From Neodothiora populina (Eukaryota), in assembly GCF_041146345.1 (NCBI RefSeq), contig NW_027191411.1:1922001-1986000 (forward strand): DNA of 64,000 nucleotides, given 5' to 3'. Positions 1-60,984 of this stretch are shown here, piece by piece. The position numbers and the translations under genes were made by a program. The notes beneath the pieces were generated by a model, which did no database searches, was not told the DNA's origin, and saw only the letters and a list, made by a program, of their open reading frames with translations. Within the stretch, counting starts at the first letter, position 1; the number at the start of each line of letters is the position of its first letter.

Positions 1-1160
1 TTGTCTTCGAGAGTCTTCGAACACACGTAGCGCGAGACTCTTCTCCTCCTTTGAGCACGACTTGATCTTACTCAAGCAGAATCCGAGCGTAGCCCCGTCC
101 TCAAGACTCATTCCTGCTCCTGAGGCCAGATAGGGTAGAGTTGCGTGTACAGCATCGCCAAGCAAGGTAAACGTTGCTGACTCGTGCGACCAAGAGGTAT
201 CCAGTCCAGCACGGTAGCAAAGCTTCCACTTCTGCACAGATTGACAAAGGGCTAGCAGCTTGGGTATCCGGGGATCCCAATCCTTGTATAGTAGTCGCAT
301 CTCCTCCACGTTACCATCTAATGTCGTTGCATCGGCGGGCATGTCATCTGGTACCAAGAGGACCATGTTGAATAGGTCGCCGTCACGTAAGACGTAGTTG
401 ACGGCATGAGCGCCAGGACCCATCCAGTATCTGACCTTGTGTGGGTGCTCTAGCAGGGGAGCAAGATCTGGATCTTTGGCCATTTCCTTTGTGTTCAAGA
501 GCATACGATAAGCAAGATCGCCAGTCGGGGTAGGCGGGCTCGGCTTGCCTAGAAGAATCTCTCGGCAGGTTGAAAATATACCATCCGCGCCAACGACCAG
601 ATCCGCAGTCAGACATTCGCCGTTTTGCAAGAAGATAGTGGCAGTATCTTTGCCGTCTTCTTCGCATTTGATGTCAACGACTCGTGAGTTGATTTTGAAT
701 GTTGCGCCCAGTTCTTGCGCCCTGTCTAGCAGTGCGCGGTGTAGATCGGCTCTGTGGAAGTCCCAGAAAGGAGATTGATACTCGGCAATGGCGTCTGGGA
801 AAGACATGGATGAAAGCACCTTGCCTTTCCAATCAAGCATCATACAGTCAGTGGGGAATGTTGCATGTTTCAGCAAGGTCTCCTCCAGACCCCATTGTAT
901 CAATACTCTCGAACTATTGGGAAGGACTTGGATGCCGGCCCCAACTTCGGCAATCTTGGATGCACTCTCGAGGACATGGACTCGGTGGCCAGCGAGTAAT
1001 ATTGAGATGGCGGCTCCAAGACCTCCAAGACCAGCACCAATGACTATGACCTAATATATGTTCAGAACTCATCTTCAAATCAGCGAGCAATAAGACTCAC
1101 GTTCAATTGGTCTGCCTCAGCTCTCTCTTGCTTTACCAAGATTGGGATATGTGAAACCAT
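1..1160 (-). CDS. hxnX: FAD-dependent aromatic monooxygenase (salicylate hydroxylase / 6-hydroxynicotinate 3-monooxygenase family), HxnX-like; 3' end runs off the window
   Basis: Missed by the ORF track. Manual translation: exon 1 1160-1101, GT..AG intron 1100-1051, exon 2 1050-<1 open throughout. Motifs VIVIGAGLGGLGAA (GxGxxG), EVGAGIQVLPN, WDFHRADLH, DLVVGADG, LLGDAVHATLPYLASGAGMSLEDG. The family is secure; hxnX orthology is inferred from recalled similarity and cluster context. Confidence 0.85.
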
Positions 1161-2094
1161 GGCTTGTGTAAGATAATGATGCTATGAATCGTTGTTCGAA
1201 TTATCGAGGTCTCAAGCCTTGATGATATTTGTGCTCTCCTACACTGAACAAAGTTCTTGTTGAGAGTCTGATACCTGCATAATCAGACATCGTTCGGTCC
1301 TCGACTTATCAGTATATAAACAGATTACACGTCATGTAGCTACTACTGTATCGATGACCCTGCAGGCAAGGAGAGCAATGGTGGGCGTGTAAGGCCAGAT
1401 CGAGCCTACGCCAAGGATGGGGGTGGTTCCCCATTCCCCTCATGTCCATCCAACCCGATATCCCGGGAATTCAATATCGATCATAGGCAGATAAATGAGC
1501 CATGAGCAGCACTATCATTGATTTTTGTAGAGGTCGCATACTTCTCATGAGACAGGTTCGTACGTATTCGATCGTGAAGGGACAGATATGCCCAACCCTT
1601 GAATGATTGATTATTGTCAAGGGTCTACTGTGGCATACCTTCGAAGGGTCCTGTCAGTGCGCCGTTGCCTGCCGATCAACTCCCCCCTCAGCCCTGTCTC
1701 TACGCTGACTTCATGTGCTGCTACGTACAAAGTTCAATAATGTACTACCTGCCTAATCCTACCTCGGGTGAATCGAAATAGTAAGGTAAGTTAGTTTTCT
1801 GACCGTCGTTGGTTTCACGGTAGATCCGCCTCGTGTACTGGCTGAATATCGAGGAGTGGGGTACCTTAGCTCCTATCATGCACCATACACCGTAACTATG
1901 CACGCTTTCATGCAATTGGTTCGCCTGTATATGCATATCTGACCTATCAGATACGCGGCATCTATTGCTTACATACCGGTTTTCAATCATAAAGCTGATA
2001 TCCTCGTGACCTTTGCGACCTGCGATCATAAACTACAGTGTACTGCTCAAAGGCCTCCTCAGAATTTACATTACCAGTGAAACTAGGACTCACA
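1161..2094. promoter_or_regulatory. Divergent promoter (monooxygenase / P450) with GHGGGG and GATAA motifs
   Basis: CCCCTC 1436-1441 and 1684-1689, GTGGGG 1856-1861, inverted ATGGGG-N6-CCCCAT 1417-1434, and GATAA-type sites at about 1171, 1305 and 1489. Confidence 0.5.
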
Positions 2095-3703
2095 ATGGAG
2101 CTCTCTCGTTATTTTACGCTGATCTGCGTGTTCCTACCAATATGGTTTTGCATGTACTATATCTTGCCCTACTTCACCACGTATAAAAGCCACAGGACTA
2201 TTCCTGGACCATTTGTTGCGAAATTCAGTAACATTTGGCTGGCGTCACACACCAAGAAAGGTAGAAAGTTTGCTGCTGTTGATGCCGCTCATCGTAAGTA
2301 TGGGAAGGTGGTCCGTGTTGGCTACAACTTCATCTCCATCGCGGATGAGAGAGGTCTTCACACGGTCTATGCGCATGGTAATGGATTTTTAAAGGAGTGA
2401 GTAACCTTTTCTTCCACTATATGCGCGCTGGGCTGATTTAGATTGAAGTCACTTCTACGAGGCATTTGTATCTGGTGTTCCAGGGGTCTTTAACGTCAGA
2501 GACCGCGTTGACCACACTCGGAAGCGTAAGATTATTGCTCATGCCTTCTCTCCTGGGGCCGTTGTGGCATTCGAAAGCCACATGACAGACAATCTACGTC
2601 GTTGGATCAGGCAATTGGACCGTATCGCGTCGACACCAACACGTGAGGGCGGGTACGCAGAGTTCAACATTATGCCATGGTGCACTTTTATCGCCTTCGA
2701 TATCATAGGAGACCTTGCATTTGGGGCACCATTCGGCATGGTCGAGAAGGGTCGTGATGAGTGTGAAGCCCAGTTCGTCAAAGATGGACCGATTATCCTC
2801 GCTCCTGGTGCCGAAACGTTAAACCGTAGAGGCGAAGTCAGCTCTACGCTTGGTTTACTCTTGCCAATCCGTCCATACGCCAAGTACCTGCCGGATCCAT
2901 TCTTCTCAAAAGGTCTCGAGTCGGTAAGAAATCTGCACGGTATCGCCGAAGTTGCAGTCAACAAACGTCTCGACGCGGCAGAAAAGGGTGAAATGGGTGG
3001 GAAGCGACGCAACGACATCCTGGACATGCTTGTTCGAAGCAAGGATGCCAATGGTAACCCTATGGGCCGCGAGGAGCTCGTTTCAGAAGCCTTGACCGAA
3101 TTGATTGCTGGTAGTGATACTGTATCCAACACCACATGCGCAATCTTCTATTGGGTCCTGCATGGCGAGCGAGCCGCACCGGGAACAATTGTTTCACGCT
3201 TACAGGCTGAGCTTGATGCTGCTGTCCCAGCCGGGGAGATTGCGACGCATGCTCAGGTCAAGAACCTGCCCTTCCTGCGTAGGTGTATCGATGAGGCTAT
3301 GCGTCTTCATTCGACTTCTGCTTTGGGTCTTCCTCGGATAGTCACGAGTGAGATGGGTGTTGAGTTCGACGGTATTCATTTTCCGAAAGGCACGGTTCTT
3401 TCGGTCCCGAGTTACACGATCCACCATGATGCTGATGTCTGGGGTCCCGACGTTGAAGAGTTCAGACCTGATAGGTGGCTTCCTGGCAACCTGACCGAGA
3501 GACAGAAGATCTGCTTCAACCCGTTCTCGTACGGGCCTCGTGCTTGCGTTGGTCAGAATGTAGCACATATGGAGCTGGCTCTGATCATCGGAACGGCTTT
3601 CAGGAGATATGACTTCACACTCTATCAGGAGCGCCTAGAGTCACACGAAGGATTCTCGAAGAAGCCTAACGAGTGTTATGTTGGAATCAAGCGAAGGATG
3701 TAG
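2095..3703 (+). CDS. Cytochrome P450, CYP53 (benzoate 4-monooxygenase)-like, 518 aa
   Basis: Exons 2095-2396 and 2449-3703 (GTGAGT..AAG intron). N-terminal TM anchor, I-helix LIAGSDT, ExxR (DEAMR), FRPDRW, heme motif FSYGPRACVG. CYP53-type segments LNRRGEVSSTLG and HSTSALGLPR. Confidence 0.92.
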
Positions 3704-4379
3704 ATGTCCGATCGCGCTGTATGGGAAAAGTCCTGTTGAGCTAGTGCAAATACAAGCATATCATTCTCATGACCACTTGAGTTTGTCACATCTAAATCGC
3801 AAGCCATGGCCACCCCACTCAATCCCACTGCGCACAGATCTACTGTAGCAACATCTAGGCACACCTGAAGCAAGAAGTCTCGAGTCAGTACAGCATCGGA
3901 CCCTGCTTTCCAAAACACTGAGATGTGTTTCCGATGTGTTTACAAGGGTCAAGATTCCTCAACGATAGGCTGGCTCATCATCATACCCCGCCAAACCCAA
4001 GCGTCAATTGGCCCACTGAGAATCAACCGATAAGCAAACGTGGGGGTCTTTCGCTGCCTATCAACCATCGGACCCTTGAACTTTTTGTGGTTGACTTACG
4101 AAGGTACTGAGCAGCACTGTGGAAACCTCGACACGCAGATTGTTGCGTTGCATCGCAAGCATAACGGAACATCTCAAACACATTTGCTGTGACACTGTAG
4201 ACGCACCCCACTCTGTGTGCCACTTCCGCCATTCCAAGGACACAACTTCTGGTTGAGCATGGACCATTGAGGTTTTAGTTAACAATGGCGATGTGCCTTT
4301 GCTTCTGTTTACTTTCTTTCATTCCGCTTCGTCTTCTTGCATTCTATCACGTGAACCCGAGAAACAAAGTATAAGCAAA

Positions 4380-5654
4380 ATGCCTGCCGCCACATCGCCT
4401 CCGCAATTCACACCCCTCAAGGACACTGTCCTGTTCAAGCCATGGAAATTGGGCTCCTTGTCATTGGAGCACCGCATTGTGCAAGCCCCCTTGACCCGTA
4501 TGAGATGCTCTCAAGATGCTGAAGGAATCAATGTGCCATCAGACATGATGGTGGAGTACTACGGCCAGAGAGCTAGCAAGGGCGGCCTACAATTGACCGA
4601 GGCTACTGATATCTCTCGCTGGGCAAGTGGATATCCTGGAGTTCCTGGTCTTTTCGCCGACTCGCAGATTGCCGGATGGAAGAAGGTCACAGATGCCGTG
4701 CACGCAAAGGGTGGTTTCATTTACTGCCAGATGTGGCACACCGGCAGAGCATCCCCGAAGGGACTGCTCAACGGCCAGCAGCCAATCAGTGCAAGCGATA
4801 TCCCCATCTCGGGCAAGGCTTTGGACGGCACCGAGTACGGTGATGCTCCTCCAAGGCCCATGACTGTCGAGGAGATCCACGGGGTTACCGCCGACTTCGC
4901 AAAGGCTGCTAAGCACGCACTGGAGGCAGGATTCGATGGTGTTGAGGTTCACGGTTAGTCGTTCCGATTCATTTGTTATAGAGCAGTACTAACATGAATC
5001 GAAGGTGCCAACGGCTATCTCCTCGATCAATTCCTTCACGACAACGTCAACAAGCGAACCGACGCATACGGTGGCTCCGTAGAGGGCCGCTGCCGTTTCC
5101 CTCTCGAAGTCATCAAGGCTGTCTGTGGAGCCATCGGAGCTGACAAGGTCGGCGTACGTCTATCGCCATACAACTATTTCCAAGACACCAAGGACAGTGA
5201 TCCCAACGCACACTGGGCCTATATGTGCGAGCAGATCGCAGCTCTCGCCGAGAACGAGCGACCTTCATATGTTCACAGCGTAGAGCCGCGTTTCGACGAG
5301 GTCCTCGATGAGCAGGCTAAGCTCGACGCTCTATCAGCTTACAAGACTGGCGCTGGTGCAGAGGCAGAAACAACACGCAAGACTGCACACTCACTCATTC
5401 CATTACGCCGCATCCTACAAAAGGGTGGCGTGAAGTTCTTCACCGCTGGCGCTTTCAACCGGGATAATGCAGTTCCCAAACTTGAGGCTGATGACGCAGA
5501 TGCCATCGTTATGGGTAGATGGTTTATCGCCAACCCCGATCTACCGAGACGTCTTGCGGAGGGACTTCCGCTCAACGCCTATGATCGTACTACCTTCTAC
5601 GGAGGAAACGAGAAGGGATATACTGACTACCCGTCCTTCACTGGTTCTTCTTAG
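4380..5654 (+). CDS. hxnT: Old yellow enzyme (NADH:flavin oxidoreductase), HxnT-like
   Basis: Exons 4380-4953 and 5005-5654. Splicing restores the catalytic HGANGY. Also APLTRMR, YYGQRAS, QMWHTGR, GRWFIANPDLP, TFYGG..GYTDYP. hxnT orthology is inferred from recalled similarity (RLSPYNYFQDT, EPRFDE) and adjacency to the hxnR-like gene. Confidence 0.88.
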
Positions 5655-6334
5655 TAGCTGCATATAGATTCCCCTTAAGTTATAGCATACATTACCACAA
5701 CTTTGCTCGACGTTGCCAACGACCATAGTGATCCTGTTTGTCATTTCGGAGTGTGTATTGTATGGCATGTCAAATTGACCCCCACTCTTGATAGAGAGGA
5801 GATAAGGTAGGCTTGGAGGTAATCCATACGCTTGGACCAGCAGCTTACCTTTATTATGGTACAGGCAAATAGGCTAACGTCTGCATACCTGGGGTACGGC
5901 TATACGACCAATCAGTCTACACCAGTTGGTTGGTCTGTACGTCCCGTTTTTCGGCCGCGGCAGATGTAGGAATATAATTGCTCTTTCACGATTGGTTAGG
6001 TCAAGGGAGTGGCACATGTGGGAGTCGGCAATTGGTCAACTACTTCGGATCATGGAAGGATCCTGCTAAACGGTTCGAGTGGCGGCTCCTTCTCGAGGTC
6101 CAGTTCCACGGCGTTGAGCCCCGCCAAAGATAGGCTGTCTGTTATCGCGGGAATTAATCATTGTACTCTGTGTGCAGTATGAGCCCTCAATGAGTCCAAT
6201 TCGGGTTACTTTACATTGCCTCATTCAAGTCGGACATCCGCTTTGATATTTTGGATTGTTTCGTCGATGGTCATTCTCTTGCAAACGTCCACAGCTTGTG
6301 CGAACTGCGTTTCAAGTATCAACTATCTACAGAA

Positions 6335-9285
6335 ATGGTGAAGAGAGCGAAGAAGTTCAGCTGCACATTCGAAGGCTGTGATAGAGCTTTCACTCGTCAA
6401 GAGCATCTCCAACGGCATAGCCAGAATCACTTGGGTGGCGATTATACTTGTGATCGCTGCCGCGCTCATTTCAAGCGACGTGATCTTCTTGATAGACATA
6501 TCACTCGCCACTTGGAAAAGGACGCCGAAGGAAGGTCGCTGATGACGCGGAAACGCTCATGGAAGGACGCGGATGGGAATATAGTTGCTAAGAGGCCGAC
6601 TCTGGAACCTGAGAAGAATGGCGCAGAAGAAAGCAATGCAAATGGGCCACACCCAATCTCTCCAGCTTCAGCACTAGTCTCGGAACCGCACCAGACGTCA
6701 GTTTCCAATGTCACTGAACCTCGCCGACCGTCTGCCGTCGACGACTCATGGACTCGACCTCAACACGATGATCTTCCTCTGAACGACACCATCAATTCCT
6801 TCCGGGAGGAAGACACATTCTGGGAGGTGCCTGCTGCAAAGGGCAACGACGATCAGATTGTCAATGAAGACGTAATCGGTGACAATGTCTTCAATCCAGA
6901 TACTGGTGAGTTCATCGGCGGCATCATATTAAATCGAACCAAGGCACTGATATCAAAAAGCGAGCTCGTTCAATATGCCATTTACCACGATGAGCAACTA
7001 CAACTGGTTATTCGATCTTGACCCTAACACATCTAACGCTTTCCCTATGGAGGGTCTCTACTTCGACTCGTTACCGTCTCCGAAGCCTTCAGAGACAATG
7101 CAGGCGACGAATGAGCGGTTCGATGCGGGCCATTTTGTTGAAGCTGTGATCCCTTCGGCGGATCACATGGACTCACACCCTACAGCGGACGGCCGAGTAC
7201 CAGGGTTATCTCCAATGGCATCTATGCCCATCATTCAAACTACGAACAACCATCACTCTCAGTCGCCTAACGCGGAACGGTTCCCGGTCACGAGCAATGC
7301 AAGTGACTCATCTGCCTTGACTGCCACTAGATGGCAATCTTCGCATGCGGGATCCGTAACCCATGCTACTTCCGTGACGACTGCAAGTCAATCAGGAGGT
7401 AGTCCAGCGCGGATCCAGTCCAAGTCATCGCCTCAAGCGGAAATAGAGCGTCCTATGGCGCATCTCAATCAAAATGGCAGCTTTCCCACGCTCGACGCAA
7501 TTGCACGCTCTCAGGTCTTGCAGCTCATTGAGACCATGAAGCCTGTGATGCCTGATGGCTCCTTCGTGACTGCAGATCACCCTCTTCTGTCATTATCTTT
7601 CTTGCAAACTTATTCTGATCTATACTTTTCTCGTTTCAACACGGCTTACCCTCTCATACACCAACCAACGTTCGATCCTTCCCGAACCGACACTCTCCTC
7701 TTGATATCCATTCTACTCCTAGGAGCCACATACTGTGAGAAGGATGCACATCAATTGGCAGTAAGTCTTGAAAATCCTCGATCACCCAACATACAATATT
7801 GTCGCTGACCAACTCAGGTATGTATTCATGATGTCCTACGGCCGCAAATCTTCGCTCATGCAAGCTTTGATGCTCGCGCGGAGTTGTGGATGTTACAGAC
7901 AATCTTACTGGTAGAATGTTTCGGTAAATCTAGAGCCGGACAAAAGCAACACGACATGTCACACCTGTTTCACGGGCTACTCATCAATCTTATTCGACGT
8001 AGTGACTGTCAATCGATTCGTTTAGATGCTCCTCGTGATGGTCATAAAGACTTGGAGGATAATTGGAGGGATTGGGTCGAGGCAGAGCAGAAGAAAAGGT
8101 CCGTCAATCATGCTTACAGGGACGAAAACCCCACTGATAAACTCCAGGCTGGCCCTACTCTGCTTCATGTGGGACACTCAGCATGCTGTCTTGTTCTGTC
8201 AATCCCTTTGCATGTCAGCCTTTGAGCTACTTTCCACCTTACCATGCGATCAACAAATTTGGGAAGCGGCGTCCGCGGAGGAGTGGGCAAGGCTTCAGGA
8301 GAAGCAGAAACCATTACCACTGTTTTTGACGGTCCTCAAGTCGTATCTGTCTGCAAAGGCACCTCCAGCTGCTCGAGAACTCAACGCTCTTTCGAGAGTA
8401 CTGCTTCTTCATGGCTTAATGTCGATCGCTTGGGATATGAACCGAAGAGATCAAACTTCTTTAGGTATGGGCTCGTGGCTAGATCAAAAGTCTCATAGAC
8501 TAAGTCTTGCAGGTATCATGGGCAATGATCTTTTGGGGGATTGGAGACAACGAATCGCAAATGCATACGACACCTGGAAGGCCGACTTCGACGCATACAC
8601 TATGTCCATCACTCAGATCCTTGCTTCACCATCTGCCAGCGCGGTGGTAACTTCTTCTGATCAACGCCGACGAGCCCGCTCTGAATTCTGGATATACACG
8701 ACTGTCAATTGTGGTCTCTACCATGCCGCCCACGTGATGCTATTTTCAAACTTCCTGGACTTACAAATTTACGCGGGTGCACGACATATTCTGGGCCATC
8801 CAGTTGGCAAAGCGGACTACGCTCGCTCTCAGCGTGTAGCGAAGCGCTGGGCCACTGAGGATATATTGCATTCCTCTAAGGCGGCGTGGCATGCGGCGCA
8901 AATCATCAAGGATACAGTTATGAACCTGGAAGATTTTGACGCGGGAGGTTTATTTATTCACCCGTGGTGTTTGTATCTGGCGACGATAACCATATGGAGT
9001 TTCAATCACGCCCAGCCATTTGCGAACGACGGCTTCAATGAAGGAGAGGACGAGATGGTATGGGATGCTTCCGCCGACATGAACGCTTTGATCAGTAGTA
9101 TGACTAGTGGGACGTCTGAGCAGCTTGCCAGATCAGTGGCTGCGAACAAGTCGGTACGTACGGCCGGTCTGACAGCCGTTATTGCTACGCATCTGAGCAA
9201 GGTCCGCTGGGCCATCATTCACGAGGGTATGCTGGTACTGAAAGGCCTGGTTCCATGGCGACTGATCGGAGATAACCCACGATGA
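6335..9285 (+). CDS. hxnR: C2H2 zinc-finger plus fungal-specific TF domain regulator, HxnR-like (nicotinate cluster activator)
   Basis: Two Adr1/AmdX-type fingers (CTFEGCDRAFTRQEHLQRHSQNH; CDRCRAHFKRRDLLDRHITRH). Introns 6906-6960, 7761-7817, 8099-8147 and 8465-8512 join the ORF pieces in frame. HxnR-like segments TRKRSWKDADGNIV, PDTASSFNMPFTTMSNYNWLFD, HPWCLYLAT, KVRWA. Confidence 0.82.
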
Positions 9286-10793
9286 CTTTGATACTCGCAC
9301 TCAAGCTAGAGTTACCATAATGATTACGGCAATACACGCATTCACGCAAGTATCAGATTACGGATACAGAGACCATTGATCATGTCGCTTTCCGATGTGA
9401 GGATACTCTAAACAGCCTGTGCATGTCTCAAACTTGAATACCACAGTCAGCGTTGTTTTCACACCAGCAAGTTTATGCAGTACGGCTGGGAGTGATGATC
9501 CGTCGAGTTCTACCGGTCTACGCAAGTTCACGCTGAGTAGCGACGTGGCCGAGTATCCATCTCGCCTTCCTTCCCAAGCAGGTGTCTCACACGATCTGTC
9601 AGCTCAAGCGGCGAAACACATACGAGTTTGGAAGTAGCATCCCCAGCAACAATCCCTAGCCGAGACGGTCCCCAGCATATCAAGAATCTAGCCCTTCGAG
9701 TTCGGCGTCAATTGCGAAACCACAGCGCGAGTAATCTTCGCGCTCGGAGAAAACACCGGTAGCTGCACAGACAAGTATCACTTGCCAAAGGTCAGCAAGA
9801 TAGCTTCTTATGACCGATCGCAACACGAGGGATAGTGCCCAGCCTAGATCGTCGACCGAAAGCGGACAAACAAACATCGACGCAACTTTGCGGTAAAGGC
9901 TGGGCATGAATGCGCCTTTCGAGGCGACTCCGTTGTCCTATGAACACTCTGGATTAAGCGCAGCCTCGATGGGAATGCATGTCAGTCGCATGTAACCTAG
10001 ATCTATGGAATGAGCGGGCGAGTCTGGGGCTCGCATAACACGTTTTCTGTACTCTGCTGCATGGCTTGTTACACAACATGTTCGTGGCTTGCCTTGGGCT
10101 ACTGTTCTGCTCGGAAGCTCCGAAGTGATATCCGTCACATATGCATCGTCCCGGACGGCAAACTACTCGTTCATCACCCTGCCACCGCACGAGAAAGCGC
10201 ATAATGTCAGTCACCACACAATCATACGTTGTAGGCCCCCTTGCGCTTCTGAGACTTCGATCCTCACCGTCTTAGTATCAGTGATCATTGGAGGGGATCC
10301 GCATTCACCATTACACTGCAGATTGCATCTAGCTACCCCTCAAAACACGGCGTCCATGAAGACAAGAGCACGACTGATAAGACATCCTGATCTGCGCGGC
10401 TTCATGCTCCCTTCTGCACGTTGCCTTCAGAGCCACTTCACACCTGACACTCTGCTACTGCACGACGCCGTCGCACCCGCACAGGACAACTCCATCATCT
10501 CGCTTGCTCGTGGATCTTCGGAATACCTTATCCACGATTCACAGCATATGTCGCTTGAGGCTATTGCTGCTGCGCCACCCTCCCTCCCCGCGCTTCTGCA
10601 GTCGTTGAAATTCCCATATCGGGAACGAGGCGCATGTCACCACCCCTGTCGGTGCAGGGGATCAACTACACACCATGATCCTTCCCGGGTGAGATCGGTT
10701 TCTGTCATGAAATTTTCATTATATCGTGAAGCGTTCTCTTTTAGTCTAGTATCTAGAGTCCTCGTGTCATATTGAAGTCTTCCAAAGGATGGA

Positions 10794-11188
10794 TCATTCA
10801 GAAGTTGATTCTCGTTGCTGATTCTGAGAATACGGATCATTGATGCTGGACGAAGGGGCCAATTGCCGTTCCATCTCGTCAGTTGCGGCTTGGAGACTGA
10901 TGCCGAAAATCGATGAGAGGTAAGCTGCGTAGCGTTCACGATAGGCGGCGGTGATGCGTTGAGTGCTTGTTATTGTGACCATTGGTATTGCTGGACGAAC
11001 TTTCACACAGAAAAATCAGTCTGCCAGTCCAAACAGCATCTCGTAGAGCTGAACTTACCAGATTGCAGGATGGCGCTATGGTGGAGAGGCTGATCGATGG
11101 ATGTGATACTCGATGATCTTGAGTCACTTGTTGTCGAAGCTCCCGGAGCGTGCGATATGGGAATAGCATAGTGCTCAGTTGAAGACAT
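10794..11188 (-). CDS. Small two-exon hypothetical protein (~108-111 aa)
   Basis: Exon 1 11188-11059 (MSSTEHYAIP...LQS) ends at a GTAAGT donor, with a CTGAT branch-like site. Acceptors at 10999 or 10990 both restore the frame into ...AYRERYAAYLSSIFGISLQAATDEMERQLAP...*. TATA-like sequence at about 11270. Confidence 0.6.
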
Positions 11189-13289
11189 GGTCGTGGTAAT
11201 GGATGGCAGTGATTGTATCTCGAGGAGTATCCTATGATTGGTGTTTTCTTTCTAGCACAAAGTAAGGTATATAGAAATCCCAATAGATCTATACCAATCT
11301 AGTGATAGCCAAACAAGTATTGCGCGTTGTCGAGCTGATATATCGCAACCCTGTTCCACTCATTATATACCTCCTCCTTACCTTCCTCTCCACAGATTGG
11401 ACAACAACAATGAGCCATATACCTCCTCCGCTGTACCTCCTGCAATTCCCCTCCACACCATAATGTCGAAGCGCGTCCATTATTTCCCTCTCCCTCACAT
11501 GAAACGTCGGTCTAAGAAAATCACGCAAACCAAGTGGCACATGTCAACACATCCCCTTCAAAGCGGTGTTTTTCTGTCCCACCCTATCCATCCAATGACA
11601 CGAAAAGACTAGCGAAGGCAGGAAGAAAAAACGAGACAGCGCATGAGCAAGACTGCGCGATATAAACCCCACGCGCGAAATTGCGAGATAAACATACCCA
11701 TCTGTCGTTTCCAAGCGGCGGTGGGAAACTCGAAATGTGAAAAGCTATTTTACCCCAGCCGGGGACCAGAAAGTCTATCTTTTTATGGGTTTGACTGACT
11801 CCAGGTTGCGTTTGCTGCACAGCCTCGATGCCTGCCTGCCTCTGTTTCCCCCGGGGTTTAATGGCTGTGATACTACCCTCGGGGAACCGATAGAGCTGCC
11901 GAGCTAGATACCATACTGTCATCGCCGGACTCGAATGTAGATATAATTTTTCGTATAGGTGGTATATGCCTCACCTGGGTATAAAAGATGGAACAGCGTA
12001 TAGTAATGTAAGAACCAACTCGCCGCGACGATATGCATGTCGTCAGGAGCGACACTACTGCCACTACACACAGTCAGCTCGAAAGGAGCGAGAAGCTGCA
12101 AAACCGCGCAGACACATTCCTGCCACTGTTCGGTTCTGCTCGATCATTCCCGTTAGCGATGGGCACAAGGATGGAGACATGCAAGATATCGTCATCGCTT
12201 CGATCGCACCGTCTCGAGTCACCGACTCTCGAGTCAGTATATGAGATTGTATGCGCGAATAAGTGGATGAGTCCATATTCCCCCATCCGACACAGCCTCT
12301 TCCCCTTGCTCGTCCCCTTGCCCTTCTAATTCTCCAATCCGCATCGACGGGTTCTGAAGTCTTCCTCATGTCCCTTGCCTGCCTTCGTAACAATACTGTG
12401 ATAACGTTCCCTTCCTGCCATATCCCCTCAGACAGGCAGACGATGGCAGAACAAAAGAGACCGCGACCAAGTGAGACAAGTAACGATTGCACCTCCGTGA
12501 AGATCGAAGACAAAGACAAGCTTCGAGAGAGACCCGTACGTACGCTTCACTGCGTCAAACTTCGCTAACGGTCAGGAGGCGAGGGAAGAAAAAAGCTTAG
12601 TGGTGCTTGATTTCGCTTTAGGTTAGTCCTAAGGGGTTTGTCCCTTTTTTGTTGTATAGCACTGTTGACGCACATGTTGCGTATGTCAGGGTTGAACTCT
12701 GGGTCACGAGTGCTGTTCTCTAGATATTGTAGGGTACTGATCTATGTTGGGGGAGAGTTTCCTCGCTCTAGGTATCATGGAACGACGAGGTGCATGACTG
12801 TGCTTGGGGTACTAGAGTCACGTCACGATCATAGGTGGCAAGGCACTGGAAAAGGGAGATAGATTCAATCTGCCTATGTAAACCAACGTACCGTCGACTG
12901 GCGATAGCAAGGCAAAGCAAAAAGTGATGATCGATTCAACGTATAGTAATGATTGTATCGAGTCATGAGAAAAGAAGACCACCAAAAGGGGTTAAGATAT
13001 CTGCTACAAATGTCTGAACGCTAGAATCAAACAAAACAAAAAGCCGAGATGTTTGCAAGAAAGTCGACAAGATTCCTTTCTCTTTGATGCAAGTTGTGCA
13101 TCTTGTGTCGTGTCACCTAAGCAGGTGTCACTTCACCTAAAACAGGAGACAACAACAGAGCCGCGTATCATATTGTCGAAATTGTTCGACGATAAGCCCT
13201 TGCTTTCCACCATGTAGATTCGATATCCTAAAAAGGCACAGCCTCTCCGTGTGTAGTGGTGATAGCAGCAATAGTAGTAGTGGTGCAGT

Positions 13290-14066
13290 TCAGAGACTGG
13301 GAACGAGATTCTCTGGTGGTCCAGCGTCGTCCTGAGGTGTGAAGTAACACACGAAACACTGAACTGCAAGTGCATCCGGTGCGAGTTTGGTGCCATCGGC
13401 CTCTTCAATGTAGAACCTGACTGAGCCGCTGCCGATGTACCAAACTTCATCTCGATTGACAGACATGTTGATTCGGCCATGCTGCCTGGGGTGGACTGTT
13501 TCAATACGCAGAGTGACACCTTGCGCCGTCCAGATGGGTGTCAACATGATGTTGTAAGGTGACTTTACCTCGATGTATGGACGAGAAGCGTCTGCGGGTT
13601 TACGGATCGCGAGCGTAGTTTCTGGCTTCAGCCGGCGGCCCATAACCGGAGAATCGTTATTCAGATATGTGTAGACACCAGTCTCGATGGCGGTATGTTC
13701 GTCCATCCAGTCCCAGAGAGCTTCGAACAGATATCTCGTATGTTCACAAACAACCTCTCGCCAAGCTGTGTCCACTTCCGGGGGTACTTCGAGCTCGGTG
13801 TCGTCGAGCGTCTGGCACTGTCTGGAGGCGATCCTACTTTCTTCTAGTGCTTCGCGCACAAGTGCCCTCAGATCGTCTGATGAATCTGACCCATGCCCAT
13901 GCAGCCAAACGTCTCTCAGTGCTTCAAGCTCTGAGAGCCAACGAGGTGCAACATCCTCTACGGAGGACGTGGAAGCAGCAGGGGCGCCAAGACGGATCTT
14001 GTGCAATCGAGGGAAATAATCGAATCTATAGCTGCTGTTGCTCAAAGCGTCAATGATGGAGTACAT
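13290..14066 (-). CDS. Hypothetical protein, 258 aa, no family recognised
   Basis: Uninterrupted ATG-initiated ORF with globular-protein composition and a TTATAA element at about 14200 upstream. Confidence 0.65.
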   Translation of the reverse strand: MYSIIDALSNSSYRFDYFPRLHKIRLGAPAASTSSVEDVAPRWLSELEALRDVWLHGHGSDSSDDLRALVREALEESRIASRQCQTLDDTELEVPPEVDTAWREVVCEHTRYLFEALWDWMDEHTAIETGVYTYLNNDSPVMGRRLKPETTLAIRKPADASRPYIEVKSPYNIMLTPIWTAQGVTLRIETVHPRQHGRINMSVNRDEVWYIGSGSVRFYIEEADGTKLAPDALAVQCFVCYFTPQDDAGPPENLVPSL

Positions 14067-16154
14067 GATACCGAAGAGTTTGGATGATGATGTGCTTTGG
14101 GGGATGAAGTGACAATGTGTGAGAATGACACAGAAAATTTGTCAGACCAGAGGCAGGAGCGTGATTAGGTATGAAAGAACAGAAGAGACATACGGTCACT
14201 TATAACCGCGGCCATAGTGACACCGGCCAGAATGTCATGCAAGGAGGCATAGATTGAATAGACCAGAGCAGGTCGTGTGCGAAAGGTTCGAGGTAGGACC
14301 AACTTCCCTCACCTCGCCAGGCTGCATAGAAGATGATCTATCAACGGCAAAAGATTGAGGTGTCTGTGGTCGAATATGAGTGTTGTGGAACATCGTTTAG
14401 CGACATGAAGGTCTTGTAGACTCCACCCTCTCTTGCCTGCTCATGCGTACCCTCATCCCTGCGGTGTTTGTGAAGATGCAGGGAGGCAGAAATGTCATTG
14501 ACAAAGTTGGCAAAGACCGTGCACAACACTCGCGAGCCTCGATAAGCAGTAGGATCGTATGAAGACGCTCGGGAGCTGCACATGTAGTAGGACTGGCCGA
14601 TTGCCGGTACCTAATCGAAGATCGACAGGTGTGACAACTGGAAGGCACTTTACGAGTCAGGACACATGCTTAAATCGATCGAAACCTCCCGCACTATTCC
14701 ACATACGTTCTCAGTGGCTGAAGCTGCGCTATACGTGCGAAGTGGATGTCGATAGGGAGATTCTACGTTGCGCCTGGTCATGTCTCAGAAGTTTCGAGGT
14801 GATTATCTTTCTCGTCCGTCTCGAGTCGTAGTGGATATCATGTGAGCTCCTCGATGTCCATGGCCGAGTCTGTTTGAGCAGCGGATCAGACTTGCGCATC
14901 CAGCGGCAAAACAATGGACAACAACAACTTGGGGACGGTTCAGCAGCAAGTAAACATGTACCGCATATCCCTGCGTAAACCTGAATCTCTACATGAGAAC
15001 TGGTAACACGACATAATGAACGTGTCAGTGGGCTGCCAGGCCTCTAACCAGGTCATGGTACTGTGGATTCGCGTGCAACCCTCTTCACCATTCAAGCGTT
15101 CCCACCTGCATCGAAGAGGATCTTTCAAACAACGGCCAGGGGGGATACGGTGCCTGGTTGATGGTATACAAAAACGGAATGATTCATTGATCAGGGTGGC
15201 GTGACTGGGCTAGTCAACGGGAAGGCATCACATGACTATCCGGTCTTAAGGTCAGAAATGGTAGATTCCTTTCTGTAGAGCCAATATGATTGTACAATCA
15301 TCAGGCCTGTACTTGAGATTTTTATCCGTTTTCTAACGACGGTAGTGTGATGGCAACCACCAAAGGTGGATTTGGAGTGTTGTTTGACCAATATTCTCTT
15401 GATCTATTGCTTTGTGTTTTTCTCGGTTGCTACATCGATCAGTGTTGACGATATAATGTCCCAATAAGACTTGGGTGGACTTTTGTTGGTCCGGAGAGTG
15501 GTAGATGGATCAACACAGCCTGTTGCATATCACGCGTATCAGCCGCGCGAGGCGGCCGGCGGCTTCAGGCGCATGATTGTTGAGGTTCCAAATGAAGGTG
15601 ATAAGAGAACCGCGTTTGTGAGGCGCATATGGAAGATGCGATGGATGGTTTCAAGAGGCGAGGTCGGGTGCTGAGGTGGCGGGTGCGCCTTCTCCACTCG
15701 TATTTGTTTACGTCTTCGATACTCTATCTCCCACAAGCGCAGCGACCTGTGCACGGCAGCCATATGCGTCGTAGCACGGCAATCATTTGCTAATCCCATC
15801 CCTGCTCTTCGATGCAAGCTGTCGAAGGTCAACATCAGAAACAACAAGTCAACTAGGCAGATAGCAAAACAATTTGTCGAGTTGCGAGATTATTTCATTC
15901 ATGTTGCTTCTAAAATCTGCCAGATGACGGTCCATGCACCTCTAGCACCATCAATGACATTTTACTTGCATGCAGTGCAGCTTTCTCGTGACCAGAGATA
16001 AAAAGAAAAAAACACCCCTCCCCGCAAAGCAGCAAGTTTCAGAAAAGCGCCATGAGCCGTTAATGATATGCCCAAATAATTCCTTCCCAATGTTTGTCAA
16101 CTAGTCTTTCGCCACCAGCCAGCGAAATCAAAAAGTCAATTAGAATCTACGAAC

Positions 16155-18140
16155 TTAAGCGCTGAATTCCTTGATACCCTCGTGGTACTTGCCGGGGACA
16201 AGAGCGAGAGGGACGATGCCAGAGACGTGCATCTCGGGGCCGAAGACCTTCATGTTGAGGCCGAGCTCGACAGCGACGCTCTTGATGTTCTTGAGACCCT
16301 CCTGGTAGTTGGGGCCTGCACGACGCACCCAGATGGCAACGTTGTGCTCGATGAGCAGAGGAGCGACCTCGCGGAGAGCGCGAATGACACCCTTGAATGT
16401 AGATGCAACCTGACGAGCGTTAGACACGGAGTAGCTGCAGCTGCTGAGAAATAAAACTTACGTTGGTGAAGTTGGCAATACCGCCACCGATGAAGAGGAC
16501 CTTGCCCTCGGGGTGCATGGGAGCCCTCAACATCAGGTCGAAGACAGTGCGGGCGTAGTGGAAAGTCTGGGTCTCGGTGGGTGCACCAGAGTATTCACCG
16601 TAGTTGGCAAGCTCACCGGCGAAACCAGCAGAGGCGATGGCATCGGCGTAGACGACGGAAGCACCACCACCAGCGACGAGGGTCCAGACACGGCCGGAGG
16701 CGTTGAGGATGGTCAACTTGAGAGAAGCACCGGTCTTGGCGTCCATGTCGGCAATGTAAGCCTCCTCCTTGGTCAGCTCACGACCGAAAGGAGCGGGGAA
16801 CTCCATTGGTGGGCCAGCATCGATGGTGACCTTGCTGGGCGCAGCAGCAGTGATGCCGAGGGCAGTGTTGGAGCGGGCAATGGCCCACTTAACACCGCAC
16901 TCGAACTCGGCGGTCTGGTCAAGCTTGGCAGCGAGATCGAGGAAGTGAACCTCTGCAGAGGTGGCGTCGGCGTTGGGGATGACAACAAGAGGGTTGATCT
17001 CGAGGTAAGTAAACTGGCAGTCGACGTAGACGGCATAGAGGCGGGAGATGAAGTCAACGAGGACATTGTGCACGCCCTGGGGGACCTTGGAGAGGAGGGT
17101 GGAAGCGATGACCTCGTTGGAGGGGTACTCGGAGAGGTCGACCGGGATCAGGAGCTTCTCGGCCTTCTCGTCGACATCACCAACGTCGACACCGCCCTCG
17201 TGAGTGAAGAGAATCCAGTCACCCTATTGGAACAAGGCATTAGCGAGGCTGGTATAGATAAAAGGGGATGGATAAGCGTGTGATGCGGCGACTAGAACGA
17301 AGCGAGGGTGATGATCAGGGAAAGCTTGTGAGATTGCAGACGGGTAGATCCGCAGCATCACGATCGGGAGAGAGTGGTCTAATGCAGGCACCGATACTTT
17401 GGTGAAGCACAAGAGGGAGGATAGTCAGGATGGAGCGTGCTTGCTGGGGGAGGAGAGGGTCAGAGTGGGTGGGTGGATCCGCCCATGTGCTCCTGCTCCA
17501 TTGATCCGGCGGTAAAATAGCCGGGGTGAAGCCACCGCCTGCGCAAACGTGACTTTCACATGCAAGCAGCGCCAACACATTTGGGCCAATGCAATTTCCT
17601 CCCCTTTTCGCGTTTGCGTAATAATAATAAAAAACCCTCTCTGTTTTTTCTTTCTTTTTTCTGGTGAATGAAATCAAAAACAATATTCAAACGACTTACC
17701 TCGCGGACGGACATGATGTTGATGTAGTATTCGCAGTCTTGCGAGTGAGGAACAAAGGGCTCGACGAGGAATTGTCTGAGGTAGCCCTCGACGTGCTCAA
17801 CCTTCTGCAGAGTGCCGGCGCGTGCCTCGATCCACTCTCTGGCCTCTGGCCAGGTCTTGTTCAGGGCGAGGAGACCGCTCTTGCCTCGTCTCTTGATCAG
17901 CTGATCGGGCTTTGCGACAAACTTTGAGCCAGAGACGAGCAGCCACGGGTAGGTGACCTCTGCCTGGTCGAGGACATCCTTGACCGTCTTGTCCTCGGGA
18001 AAGTGTAGAGAGGCAAGCTTGGGGGCAGGGTTGTGGGTCGACGAAGGCGGTAGAGGAGTGGGCTTGATGACTGAAGCTCGCGTGAGGTGGTAGTTCAGGA
18101 TGGCTTTGCCATCGGCCTCGAGAATCGACTTTGCGGACAT
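16155..18140 (-). CDS. acl2: ATP-citrate lyase subunit 2 (ATP-grasp / citrate-binding half)
   Basis: [60 protein letters not shown]. Exons 18140-17700, 17223-16462 and 16409-16155. Confidence 0.97.
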
Positions 18141-18822
18141 TTTTTACGTTCGAGATCTGGACGGAGAGAAGATGGTGAGCAAGAGAGGGGTTTGAGAAGA
18201 GTCTCGAGGCTACAGCACAGAGAGAAGGAGCAAAGTGCACGAGGTGGTGAGAAGAGAAAGGGTGCGAGTGAATGGAGAATGCAGTGCAAGGCGAGGCAAG
18301 GCTGGAATCAGAACCGATGATGGTGGTAGAGATCAAGGTGGTGTTTCGGCATGTGTCCAAATGTCTTCGGCCTCGGAGCTCAACACAACCACACGAACCG
18401 GGTGGATCATGCTGATTCCACACAATCTCCAGCAAAGCGATCAAAAAGTCCGAAGCTGCAACTCTTCGCTTCGGCACGATTCGAATGACTCTGCAGCAGG
18501 TTGCACCCAATTTTGGAACAATTCTTGGACGATTCTGGATTCGGCTGCCGAAGATGCGGGAAACGGAAGGAGCTGAAGCTTACATACCTGCGGCTGATGA
18601 AGAAGAAGAGAAACTCGTGAACCGGATGGATGGAGGAGAGAGGGAGAATAAAAAGTCCGAAGAAATAAGAGATGGAACAGTCAATGGTCAATGGAAGCAA
18701 CGACGACGACGACAATAAAGTTGTAGAGGTATGGAGGGGACGACTCAAGGGCTTTGTTGCTCGGACAATTTCCTACGACAATACGCAAAAGGTGAGCTTT
18801 CCAGGATTCTCTCGGGCGGCAC

Positions 18823-20644: not shown

Positions 20645-22800
20645 ATGCCTGCCGCCACCTCGACCTCCGCGCCCAACGGTGCCAATGGCACCCCCGTCGC
20701 CGGCCCCAACGACAACATCACCCGCTTCTCTGCTCCCAGCCGAGCACTGAGCCCGACGCCGCAGCACACTCTCTTCCACCCCAAGACGAGATGTTTCGTC
20801 TACGGTCTCCAGACCAAGGCGGTGCAGGGCATGCTCGACTTTGACTTTATCTGCAAGCGCAAGACTCCCTCGGTCGCCGGTATCATCTACACCTTTGGCG
20901 GTCAATTCGTCAGCAAAATGTGCGTATTCATGCAGAGACATACAAGAAAGAGGGACTTAACACAAACAAAACAGGTACTGGGGAACCAGCGAGACGCTCC
21001 TGCCCGTCTACCAGTCGACAGAGAAGGCCATGGCCAAGCACTCGGACGTCGACACCGTCGTCAACTTTGCTTCTTCTCGTTCCGTCTTCCAGTCGACCAT
21101 GGAGCTCATGGAGTTCCCTCAGATCAAGACGATCGCCATCATCGCCGAGGGTGTCCCCGAGAGAGTGAGTCTGTCCGAAGGAAAAAGAAGCTACGAGTGC
21201 TGACTTGAGATAGCGCGCCCGCGAGATCCTCCACGTCGCCAAGAAGAAGGGCGTCACCATCATCGGTCCCGCCACGGTCGGAGGCATCAAGCCCGGCATG
21301 TTCAAGATTGGAAACACTGGAGGTATGATGGACAACATTGTCGCCTCGAAGCTCTACCGCGCCGGCTCCGTCGGCTACGTGTCCAAGTCCGGCGGCATGT
21401 CCAACGAGCTCAACAACATTGTCGAGCAGACGACCAACGGCGTCGCCGAGGGCATTGCCATTGGCGGTGACCGATACCCCGGCACGACCTTCATCGACCA
21501 CATGCTCCGCTACCAGGAGGACCCCAACATCAAGATCCTCCTGCTTCTCGGAGAGGTCGGTGGTGTCGAGGAGTACCGTGTCATCGAGGCGGTCAAGGAG
21601 GGCCGCATCACCAAGCCCATTGTTGCCTGGGCCATCGGCACCGTCGCCAGCATGCTCAAGACGGAGGTGCAGTTCGGCCACGCCGGCTCCATGGCCAACT
21701 CGCAGCTCGAGACTGCCTCGGCCAAGAACAAGGCGATGAAGGAGGCTGGTTTCCACGTGCCAGACACCTTTGAGGATCTCCCCGCTGCTCTCTCCGACGT
21801 CTACCAGAAGCTCGTGGCCGACGGCACCATCAAGCCCCAGCCCGAGCCCGCCGTGCCCAAGATCCCCATCGACTACTCTTGGGCGCAGGAGCTCGGTCTC
21901 ATCCGCAAGCCCGCTGCCTTCATCTCGACCATCTCCGACGACCGTGGCCAGGAGCTCCTCTACGCCGGCATGCCCATCTCCGAGGTCTTCAAGGAGAACA
22001 TCGGCATCGGTGGTGTCATGTCTCTCCTGTGGTTCCGCCGCAGACTGCCCGACTTTGCCAGCAGATTCCTCGAGATGGTGCTCATGCTCACTGCCGATCA
22101 CGGTCCCGCTGTGTCCGGTGCCATGAACACGATCATCACCACTCGTGCCGGCAAGGATTTGATCTCTGCTCTCGTCTCTGGTCTCTTGACCATTGGTTCT
22201 CGTTTCGGCGGTGCCCTCGACGGTGCCGCTGAGGAGTTCACCAAGGCCTACGACAAGGGTCTTTCTCCCCGTGACTTTGTCGACACGATGCGCAAGGAGA
22301 ACAAGCTCATCCCCGGTATCGGTCACCGTGTCAAGTCGCGCAACAACCCCGATCTCCGTGTCTCTCTCGTCAAGGACTTTGTGCACGCAAACTTCCCCAA
22401 GACTCCTCTTCTCGACTACGCCATCGCCGTCGAGACCGTCACCACCTCGAAGAAGGACAACCTGATCCTGAACGTCGACGGTGCCGTTGCTGTTGCCTTT
22501 GTCGATCTTATGCGCAACTGCGGCGCTTTCTCCCCCGAGGAGGCCGAGGACTACCTTAAGATGGGTGTCCTCAACGGTCTGTTCGTTCTCGGCCGTTCCA
22601 TTGGTCTGATTGCCCATTTCCTCGACCAGAAGAGACTCCGCACCGGTCTCTACCGTCACCCTTGGGACGACATTACCTAGTGAGTTTTTTCTGCTGTGAC
22701 ATTACGAATTCCCGCTGACTCTTTTTTCTCTCACAGCCTCCTTCCTTCCCTCGCCAAGGGCGCCCCCGGAAACGAGGGCCGTGTCGAGGTCCAGGTGTAA
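20645..22800 (+). CDS. acl1: ATP-citrate lyase subunit 1 (CoA-binding / ligase / citryl-CoA lyase half)
   Basis: [19 protein letters not shown], phospho-His motif [21 protein letters not shown]. Introns 20920-20974, 21165-21213 and 22680-22736. Ends ...EGRVEVQV*. Confidence 0.97.
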
Positions 22801-60262: not shown

Positions 60263-60984
60263 CGTTGCAGCTCGAGAACGAGAAGCTGCCGATAATTCTG
60301 AAATCGTTCTTGTCGCGATTATCACGAGTTGAGTTGTCCTAGGGTGTCTTAGGTGATGTGCCTACGGCAGGAGCGATCATCTTTCCACGCATGTTCTCAG
60401 ATTAGGTCGTGGGCGGGCAGCGAGTGTATTGGCTAGTACTTGGTATGTCGCGAATTGACTCCGCTCACACTGTTACAAGATATATCAGACACTACGGGTC
60501 TTGTGTAGTCCTAACGAATCCCAGTGTTGCATACTGCGTGTATGCTGATCTGGCAGTTATATCTAGGTATGTAAGGTACTTGTATGTATTATGATCACCA
60601 CTTTGGGGGATCCGCGTCATCCACGCCGCCAAGCCCGCCTCCACTTTCTGCACCATCGACCGCAGATCTCCGTTGTAGATCGTACAATATACATCAGGTG
60701 CTTTGTAGGAGACGGTCATGAATCAGACAACAAATCATGAAGTACTATTTAACAGCATACTGGATGATGTTATGTAGAGAAAGGCCGGGCAACCCGAGTG
60801 AGCTCGTGTGGGATTGAGCGATTCGATTTAGCTACATGTCTCTATTTAATCTCCCTTGTGTCATACCTACCACTTCGGGACCCATTGGCCCAAAAGTTCT
60901 TTACGACACCTGATATGTGCTTTGAGGCCACAATGCTTCGGATCCCCATCAACATGACCGCCCGCAAGGTTCGTAAATCGTTGT

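Follow-up and report, generated by a model that had tools for sequence, protein, structure and literature searches.

Introduction

The closest described counterpart of the locus reported here is the hxn cluster 1/VI of Aspergillus nidulans, in which genes for nicotinate catabolism are ordered hxnS-hxnT-hxnR, with hxnT adjoining hxnR (PMC5746545). It is known that 6-hydroxynicotinate is the substrate of HxnX (PMC9304392). Many fungi have retained hxnR and downstream genes of the pathway without having hxnS, and it has been deduced that they "should be able to use 6-NA but not NA", i.e. 6-hydroxynicotinate but not nicotinate (Bokor 2021, PMC8478523). The second described system of relevance is the cytochrome P450 family CYP53, whose members characteristically hydroxylate aryl carboxylates at the para position (PMC4164535). 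We analyzed a stretch of 64,000 nucleotides, here called the window, from the Dothideomycete Neodothiora populina (contig NW_027191411.1, positions 1,922,001 to 1,986,000), in which positions 1-9285 hold four intron-bearing genes, coding for a flavin adenine dinucleotide (FAD) dependent monooxygenase (-), a P450 (+), an old yellow enzyme (OYE, +) and a C2H2/Fungal_trans regulator (+). In terms of hxn genes the order is hxnX(-), P450(+), hxnT(+), hxnR(+), and the locus is very probably a genuine segment of a fungal nicotinate (hxn) catabolic cluster.

The locus is a new arrangement of a known cluster. It shares with the A. nidulans cluster an HxnR-type activator with its specific patch, an OYE beside hxnR and an HxnX-type enzyme, whereas hxnS, present in A. 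nidulans, is not visible in the window. The divergent partner of hxnX is hxnW in A. nidulans and the P450 here, and the P450 lies upstream of hxnT in tandem and not divergently, unlike in the A. nidulans cluster. The puzzle of the hxnS-less fungi gains with it a concrete and cheaply testable candidate, a P450 from a family of aryl-carboxylate para-hydroxylases that is found repeatedly beside hxnR.

The hxn segment and its genes

Gene models were built from stop-to-stop open reading frames (ORFs) and Pfam matches, with splice sites read directly from the sequence. Pfam matches were obtained for seven of the eight translated pieces of the four genes, the sole piece without a match being the first P450 exon of 101 amino acids (aa). 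Orthology was judged from motifs, published tables and synteny and not from alignment to the sequences of A. niger BphA or A. nidulans HxnX, HxnT and HxnR. A preliminary description of this DNA had placed the four-gene set here and called it an hxn-like cluster. The set is present at that place, with the Pfam domains and the public N. populina proteins in agreement, and the assignment to hxn holds as well, the regulator being an HxnR orthologue and the other two enzymes neighbors of hxnR also in Aureobasidium.

The regulator gene (6335..9285, +) has five exons (6335-6905, 6961-7760, 7818-8098, 8148-8464 and 8513-9285) and codes for 913 aa, corresponding to the long isoform of AAFC00_007104. 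Both public isoforms of that gene match it, P0145 with 844 aa and P0451 with 913 aa; the shorter one begins with MTRKRSW and is without both zinc fingers, while the longer one has them. In the window the fingers are in frame (6335-6541) and the gene model is that of P0451. The N-terminus carries two C2H2 fingers (Pfam zf-C2H2 at 3.5e-07 and a second finger), followed by Fungal_trans (PF04082), which was matched in two pieces. Between the fingers and PF04082 lies the patch NMPFTTMSNYNW, with the spacing P-x6-Y-x-W. Three constitutive alleles of A. nidulans HxnR are P219A, Y226D and W228R (Amon 2017, Table S2), and the spacing of these three residues is identical to that in the patch. According to PMC5746545, the HxnR region 208-239 is a stretch that HxnR orthologues alone conserve and that the universal paralogue AN6733/Klf1 does not have. 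The best 120 matches to the last exon are proteins of 42-63% identity, at most one per assembly, from Dothideo-, Sordario-, Leotio- and Eurotiomycetes, and the patch is present in 116 of the 121 members of this orthogroup (the 120 best matches and the long isoform). Among the members with the patch is Capronia epimyces A1O3_08403 (P0251, 46% identity), which is given as HxnR in Table S3 of Amon 2017. Matches in the ESM Atlas bear generic names only. Because it combines the two fingers and PF04082 with the HxnR-specific patch, and because its orthogroup holds a listed HxnR, the regulator is, as far as sequence can tell, a true HxnR orthologue.

The OYE gene (4380..5654, +; exons 4380-4953 and 5005-5654, intron 4954-5004) codes for 407 aa and directly adjoins hxnR. 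Pfam Oxidored_FMN (PF00724) was matched on both exons (1.9e-42 and 1.8e-35). Splicing restores the motif H-G-A-N-G-Y with the His/Asn substrate-binding pair, a general OYE trait which does not discriminate; in A. nidulans HxnT the pair is H183 and N186 (PMC9304392). In Aureobasidium melanogenum the model P0148 is a fusion of an OYE and the regulator, and its OYE part is 77% identical to exon 2 of the window OYE. Accessions of the two proteins are consecutive in A. melanogenum CBS 110374 (KEQ66400/KEQ66399) and in A. pullulans (THY88163/THY88162). Further A. melanogenum models of 1627-1651 aa fall in the same 90%-identity clusters as the fusion models and, judged by their size, are probably triple fusions of OYE, regulator and FAD monooxygenase.

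The FAD monooxygenase gene (1..1160, -; AAFC00_007101 by position) consists of exon 1 at 1101-1160, an intron at 1051-1100 and exon 2 at 1-1050, where Pfam FAD_binding_3 was matched at 2.3e-19. It is cut by the left edge of the window, and ~100 C-terminal residues, including a possible peroxisomal targeting signal (PTS1), lie outside. It is situated within 5 kb of hxnT and hxnR and is 81% identical over 349 aa to a part of A. melanogenum P0149, which in that protein is fused downstream of the hxnR orthologue. By this conserved adjacency to hxnR in Aureobasidium the OYE is classified as hxnT-like and the FAD monooxygenase as hxnX-like.

The closest solved relative of the FAD monooxygenase is PDB entry 8gsm (303 bits over 327 residues, 3.3e-89), deposited as "4-hydroxybenzoate decarboxylase", for which we found no paper. 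It is followed by PcMNX1 (8x38) and GsMNX1 (8r2t), with 267 and 241 bits over ~330 residues, which are oxidative decarboxylases of 4-hydroxybenzoate and vanillate (PMC13559804). Residues H211 and Y215 of NicC correspond to H232 and Y236 of HxnX, with V234 between them (Bokor 2022, PMC9304392). The window protein carries H-A-V-N-Y, and the same type of stretch, H-x-V-x-Y, is also found in 8gsm, a 4-hydroxybenzoate enzyme. This stretch is common to the window enzyme and the MNX1-type enzymes (8gsm, 8x38 and 8r2t); the difference from them is that the window gene and its Aureobasidium orthologue adjoin hxnR and hxnT. Fungal HxnX and 4-hydroxybenzoate 1-hydroxylases may belong to a single family whose substrates overlap. 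The C-terminal PTS1 of A. nidulans HxnX is SRL and is said to be conserved in Pezizomycotina (PMC9304392); in the A. melanogenum orthologue with 81% identity the last residues are -AQL, not a canonical PTS1, and the corresponding end of the window protein is beyond the edge.

Between the start codons of the FAD monooxygenase and the P450 lies a divergent intergenic region of 934 bp (1161..2094), a putative shared promoter. The predicted HxnR site GHGGGG occurs in it three times (1436, 1684 and 1856), and nine times in the three intergenic regions of the locus together (2.28 kb), compared to ~1 per kb in the whole window. We rejected the motif as evidence of HxnR control, since it is equally dense in the unrelated promoter of the ATP-citrate lyase genes (ten sites in 18.1-20.4 kb); the total for the window, 63, is also lower than the mean of shuffled sequences, 74.8.

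On the right side, hxnS does not adjoin hxnT-hxnR, and no gene of the xanthine dehydrogenase (XDH) type or remnant of one was found within 55 kb. Specifically, in 9-64 kb no XDH-type domain (Fer2, FAD_binding_5 or Ald_Xan_dh_C2) was present on ORFs of 130 aa or more. In 9286-16400, where ORFs down to 55 aa were included (64 in all), there was neither an hxnS remnant nor any other hxn-like domain.

The cytochrome P450 and its clade

The P450 gene (2095..3703, +; exons 2095-2396 and 2449-3703, intron 2397-2448) codes for 518 aa, with Pfam p450 at 1.4e-63 on 2447-3700(+). The protein is 100% identical to AAFC00_007102 (P0001), which is annotated on a contig of 2.02 Mb. Orthologues with 66-86% identity over the 417-aa exon are found in four classes of Pezizomycotina and are labeled benzoate 4-monooxygenase by their sources. 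The protein is also 50% identical to a Schizophyllum commune protein which its source names "cytochrome P450 monooxygenase pc-bph". Membership in a CYP family is assigned at 40% or more identity to named members, a level that the window P450 reaches for CYP53. Among representatives at 50% identity the P450 clade forms one cluster, and the next full-length representatives are basidiomycete "pc-bph" types (50%), a Taphrinomycotina yeast (44%) and a Fusarium paralogue (40%).

To place the P450, a tree was made with FastTree on a P0001-anchored alignment (residues 103-517) and rooted on a basidiomycete; its 157 rows were 97 proteins with lengths of 480-600 aa and 60 loci in which 330 or more residues were aligned, anything shorter being excluded. 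The P450 clade is monophyletic, and its sister is a class of 45-58% identity to it with the same intron position (after codon ~101). Eleven positions are fixed differently between the two. The outgroup majority has the sister state at six of them and the state of the P450 clade at none, and for this reason we consider the P450 clade a derived paralogous lineage. The changes include R112 to P, R470 to Q, L504 to S and R505 to K; R112 and R470 are invariant in the sister clade, and L504S and R505K are situated in the C-terminal "EGF..KP" turn. All four positions are otherwise invariant, in contrast to the derived states of the window P450 clade; for R112, R470 and L504 this holds in canonical and outgroup CYP53s. 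From its position in the tree the P450 is a member of a derived, highly conserved sister clade of canonical CYP53. The sister clade resembles the characterised A. niger BphA and may be the one to which that enzyme belongs.

In comparison with CYP53A1/BphA of A. niger, the likeness is at the level of the 50%-identity cluster and in the conserved ExxR and Cys-pocket regions. The difference, also from the single-copy Aspergillus CYP53, is that the window P450 is less than 60% identical to any Aspergillus protein except one from A. saccharolyticus (P0015). No other Aspergillus protein belongs to the P450 clade; none of the 119 other best relatives of P0015, down to 60% identity, comes from Aspergillus, although de Vries 2017 (PMC5307856) found a single CYP53 in each of 19 aspergilli. 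The preliminary description had called the P450 CYP53-like and had seen a canonical CYP53A as fatal to its proposal. The family likeness stands (50% to pc-bph), and a place in the canonical CYP53A1 lineage does not, given the separate clade, the relatives of P0015 and the single CYP53 of aspergilli.

The nearest relatives of P0015 are from Neofusicoccum (81%) and Xylariales (82%) and not from other Eurotiales, and its presence in A. saccharolyticus looks like a horizontal acquisition. The P450s of Talaromyces marneffei, Exophiala and Neofusicoccum parvum likewise take odd positions in the tree. Aureobasidium sp. EXF-12298 carries two P450s of the clade, P0132 and P0503, in different 90% clusters, and thus the clade has been duplicated within Aureobasidium.

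Linkage of the P450 to hxnR among fungi

Linkage was scored by accession or locus-tag numbers as a proxy for gene order, and the two proteins of each linked pair are on a contig of equal length. By this measure hxnR and a P450 orthologue are 2-8 genes apart in four of the eleven genomes that allow the comparison. In N. populina the two are 2 apart (007102 and 007104), in Dothistroma septosporum 5 gene models (EME43063 and EME43068), in Zasmidium cellare 5 in both of its assemblies (KAF2170959 and KAF2170954; PRZ48_007426 and PRZ48_007421), and in Pestalotiopsis fici 8 (PFICI_03289 and the HxnR PFICI_03297). By a rough estimate, chance alone would bring a given pair of genes within 8 genes of each other in ~0.1% of genomes, and it can therefore hardly account for three arrangements in two classes.

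The last three of these species are coded "R" in Table S4 of Amon 2017, i.e. with hxnR present and hxnS absent, and so is Aureobasidium, the nearest sampled relative of Neodothiora. The hxnS status recorded in Amon 2017 for nine species that bear the P450 is seven R (D. septosporum, Z. cellare, P. fici, A. pullulans, A. subglaciale, Myriangium duriaei and T. marneffei), one L (both genes, linked) and one with neither gene. From the Pleosporales, which bear hxnS and are heavily sequenced, only Massarina is among the best 120 matches to the P450.

The linked and unlinked P450s intermingle in one subclade of the tree, from which it follows that orthologues have gained or lost the linkage repeatedly. 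For the same reason we rejected the idea that hxn-linked P450s are a paralogue separate from those linked to a gene of the major facilitator superfamily (MFS) described below. The arrangement in N. populina is lineage-specific, since in Aureobasidium the order is OYE, regulator, FAD monooxygenase, with no P450 between. We consider it rather likely that the P450 is functionally tied to the hxn cluster.

A scan of metagenomes gave 79 loci with relatives of the P450, in two identity classes. Neighbors were examined in nine loci of high identity that have flanks, with 136 ORFs of 150 aa or more; L001 and L015, duplicates of L002 and L014, were excluded. In five of the nine the recurrent neighbor is a divergently transcribed MFS gene of the carboxylate-permease type, 1.3-1.7 kb upstream of the P450 (L005 744-2045(-), L006 3642-5039(-), L012 3-494(-), L014 2940-4079(-) and L018 7373-8785(-)). 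It belongs to the anion:cation symporter group (TIGR00893 at 6.4e-60 and HpaX at 2.6e-45, both below the curated cut-offs), and its matches in the ESM Atlas have generic names only. This suggests that the MFS protein and the P450 are an uptake-plus-hydroxylation pair for an organic acid.

Possible function of the P450

The P450 may have been co-opted as an upstream enzyme of the pathway which para-hydroxylates a (hetero)aromatic carboxylate, the leading candidate reaction being nicotinate to 6-hydroxynicotinate. The HxnX-type decarboxylating hydroxylase, whose gene lies on the other side of the putative shared promoter, would then take over the product, and both genes would be under the control of HxnR, a co-regulation that we infer. 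Position C6 of nicotinate is para to its carboxylate. A CYP53-type paralogue supplying 6-hydroxynicotinate would be the most economical reading, because the para chemistry fits, the product feeds HxnX and three of the four linked species are recorded as being without hxnS. It should be noted that HxnS and the bacterial nicotinate dehydrogenases, which use a molybdenum cofactor, are unrelated to the P450 in protein family, cofactor and source of oxygen. The likeness, if this reading is right, would be in the proposed reaction and in the position at the head of the pathway. The P450 has no HxnS-type domains and is not a member of the HxnS family; it could only work like one.

Several observations weigh against nicotinate 6-hydroxylation by the P450. 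Linkage to hxnR is the minority state, the P450 being unlinked in seven of the eleven comparable genomes. It is on a scaffold other than that of hxnR in A. melanogenum CBS 110374 and A. subglaciale EXF-2481, no hxn gene was found within 10 kb on either side of it on the A. pullulans contig L002, and in Neoarthrinium moseri, Xylariales sp. AK1849, Coleophoma cylindrospora and Massarina eburnea the P450 and hxnR are on contigs of differing size. An association with hxn clusters, as the preliminary description would have it, is seen as proximity to hxnR in four species, three of them recorded as hxnS-less, and not in the other genomes compared. None of the 79 metagenome loci had a tblastn match (E<=1e-3) to the FAD monooxygenase, the OYE or the regulator. 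The P450 clade is also carried by N. parvum, in which hxnS and hxnR are both present and linked, and by Penicillium rubens/chrysogenum (Pc22g07440, 67%), given in Amon 2017 as having neither hxnR nor hxnS. The aspergilli of section Flavi, which are without hxnS, do not appear in the lists of the best 120 matches, and this speaks against the P450 as a general substitute for HxnS. The phyletic pattern of the P450 and hxnS is also suggestive only, because the lists of the best 120 matches favor close relatives and phylogeny was not corrected for.

The same direction is taken by the FAD monooxygenase, for which NicC scores 131-133 bits (~1e-37) compared to 303 for the 4-hydroxybenzoate enzyme 8gsm. 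It is far closer to 4-hydroxybenzoate/vanillate hydroxylases than to NicC, and a benzoate route would therefore be equally natural. There is also a chemical objection. To our knowledge, all characterised nicotinate 6-hydroxylases are molybdenum enzymes, which place a water-derived oxygen at the electron-poor C6. Compound I of P450s is electrophilic, so that such a carbon would be poorly suited to its attack, and the pyridine nitrogen can ligate the haem. Because of the 4-hydroxybenzoate-like FAD enzyme, the P450 in Penicillium without hxnR, section Flavi without the P450 and the electron-poor target, nicotinate 6-hydroxylation by the P450, with a substrate and product that we infer, is put forward as a tentative proposal which may well prove wrong. 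The wider claim is held with similar reserve. It states that the clade is a molybdenum-independent, O2-dependent nicotinate 6-hydroxylase, derived from a benzoate 4-hydroxylase, which replaces HxnS in several hxnS-less lineages.

A rival explanation is that the P450 has kept the chemistry of CYP53. Benzoate or a substituted benzoate would be converted to the 4-hydroxy acid and this, by the HxnX/MNX1-type enzyme, to a hydroquinone. HxnS would then not have been replaced, and the linkage would come from a decarboxylating hydroxylase used in common, or from cross-talk of aromatic with pyridine catabolism. The best solved relatives of the FAD monooxygenase (8gsm, 8x38 and 8r2t) agree with this, as do the 50% identity to pc-bph with the benzoate 4-monooxygenase label that every source gives to the clade, the HpaX-like MFS of the anion:cation symporter type as its conserved neighbor elsewhere, and the persistence of the clade in P. 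rubens without hxnR. The hxn cluster of A. terreus, moreover, is reported to be induced on salicylate (PMC7842363). On the other hand, the imidase and amidase of the hxn pathway are specific for N-heterocycles (PMC9304392), no ring-cleavage dioxygenase was seen at the locus, and it would be left unexplained why the linked species with a recorded status are hxnS-less ones. The loss of R112, R470 and L504, invariant in canonical and outgroup CYP53s, also argues for a changed specificity of the P450. We regard retained CYP53 chemistry as somewhat unlikely.

It is also conceivable that the P450 is a neighbor with no functional tie, brought in by a rearrangement in N. populina, with the other proximities due to chance or inherited synteny. 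The gene order in Aureobasidium, where the P450 is on another scaffold, and the lack of hxn neighbors in the metagenome loci would fit this, as would the absence of specific enrichment of GHGGGG. Sporadic unrelated insertions (nfsA, pfdB and a kinase) are described for hxn clusters, which could be a recombination hot spot (Bokor 2021, PMC8478523). Chance would nevertheless have to account for distances of 2, 5 and 8 genes in the three arrangements, each with the low estimated probability given above, and the inserted gene comes from the only P450 family with a chemistry suited to the first step that is missing; an accidental neighbor is for us an unlikely explanation. The same linkage would equally be expected if the P450 were tied to the cluster through another pyridine substrate or step, i.e. 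a different pyridine carboxylate, or the making or removal of the inducer. The inducer in A. nidulans is a late intermediate, and some steps there have redundant enzymes not yet identified (PMC9304392). Nothing positive was found for any particular alternative substrate, and CYP53 chemistry is para-hydroxylation of aryl carboxylates (PMC4164535), which makes such a role improbable in our opinion.

Nicotinate 6-hydroxylation by a P450 would, if true, be new in kind. No proposal of it was found in the literature searched, and no mention was found of the locus tags of the P450 orthologues. The only literature that joined hxnS, hxnR and a P450 was the A. terreus salicylate study, in which the P450s are unrelated to this one. 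The main text of Bokor 2021 (PMC8478523) has no P450 among the "additional genes" of hxn clusters, although its supplementary cluster maps may show the gene. The lineages in which HxnS would have been replaced are Dothideales, Mycosphaerellales and Amphisphaeriales, and the retention of an otherwise headless hxn cluster in them would be explained. Within a cluster of primary metabolism, one gene would clearly have been displaced by a non-orthologous one, and activation of the pyridine ring would have a new enzymatic solution, with a useful biocatalyst for 6-hydroxynicotinate. If refuted, what is left is a well-documented new hxn arrangement and a P450 clade that is a strongly conserved paralogue of a proposed antifungal target.

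Remaining part of the window

Between hxnR and the ATP-citrate lyase genes there are ~7 kb without a convincing Pfam domain, in which the longest ORFs are 10014-10775(+) and 13290-14141(-). The sole Pfam matches in 9286-16400 are a sub-threshold UPF0240 and, at the 16.2-kb edge, Citrate_bind, with which ATP-citrate lyase starts. The genes for the ATP-citrate lyase subunits are divergent, at 16420-18143(-) and 21214-22680(+), with an intergenic region of ~3 kb, and beyond them are an importin gene and other unrelated genes. At the right edge, an ORF at 60985-63999(-) that runs off the window has AMP-binding, PP-binding and NAD_binding_4 domains and a C-terminal short-chain dehydrogenase, i.e. 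the carboxylic-acid-reductase architecture resembling a non-ribosomal peptide synthetase (NRPS-like), and beside it is a Zn2Cys6 regulator at 58124-60361(-).

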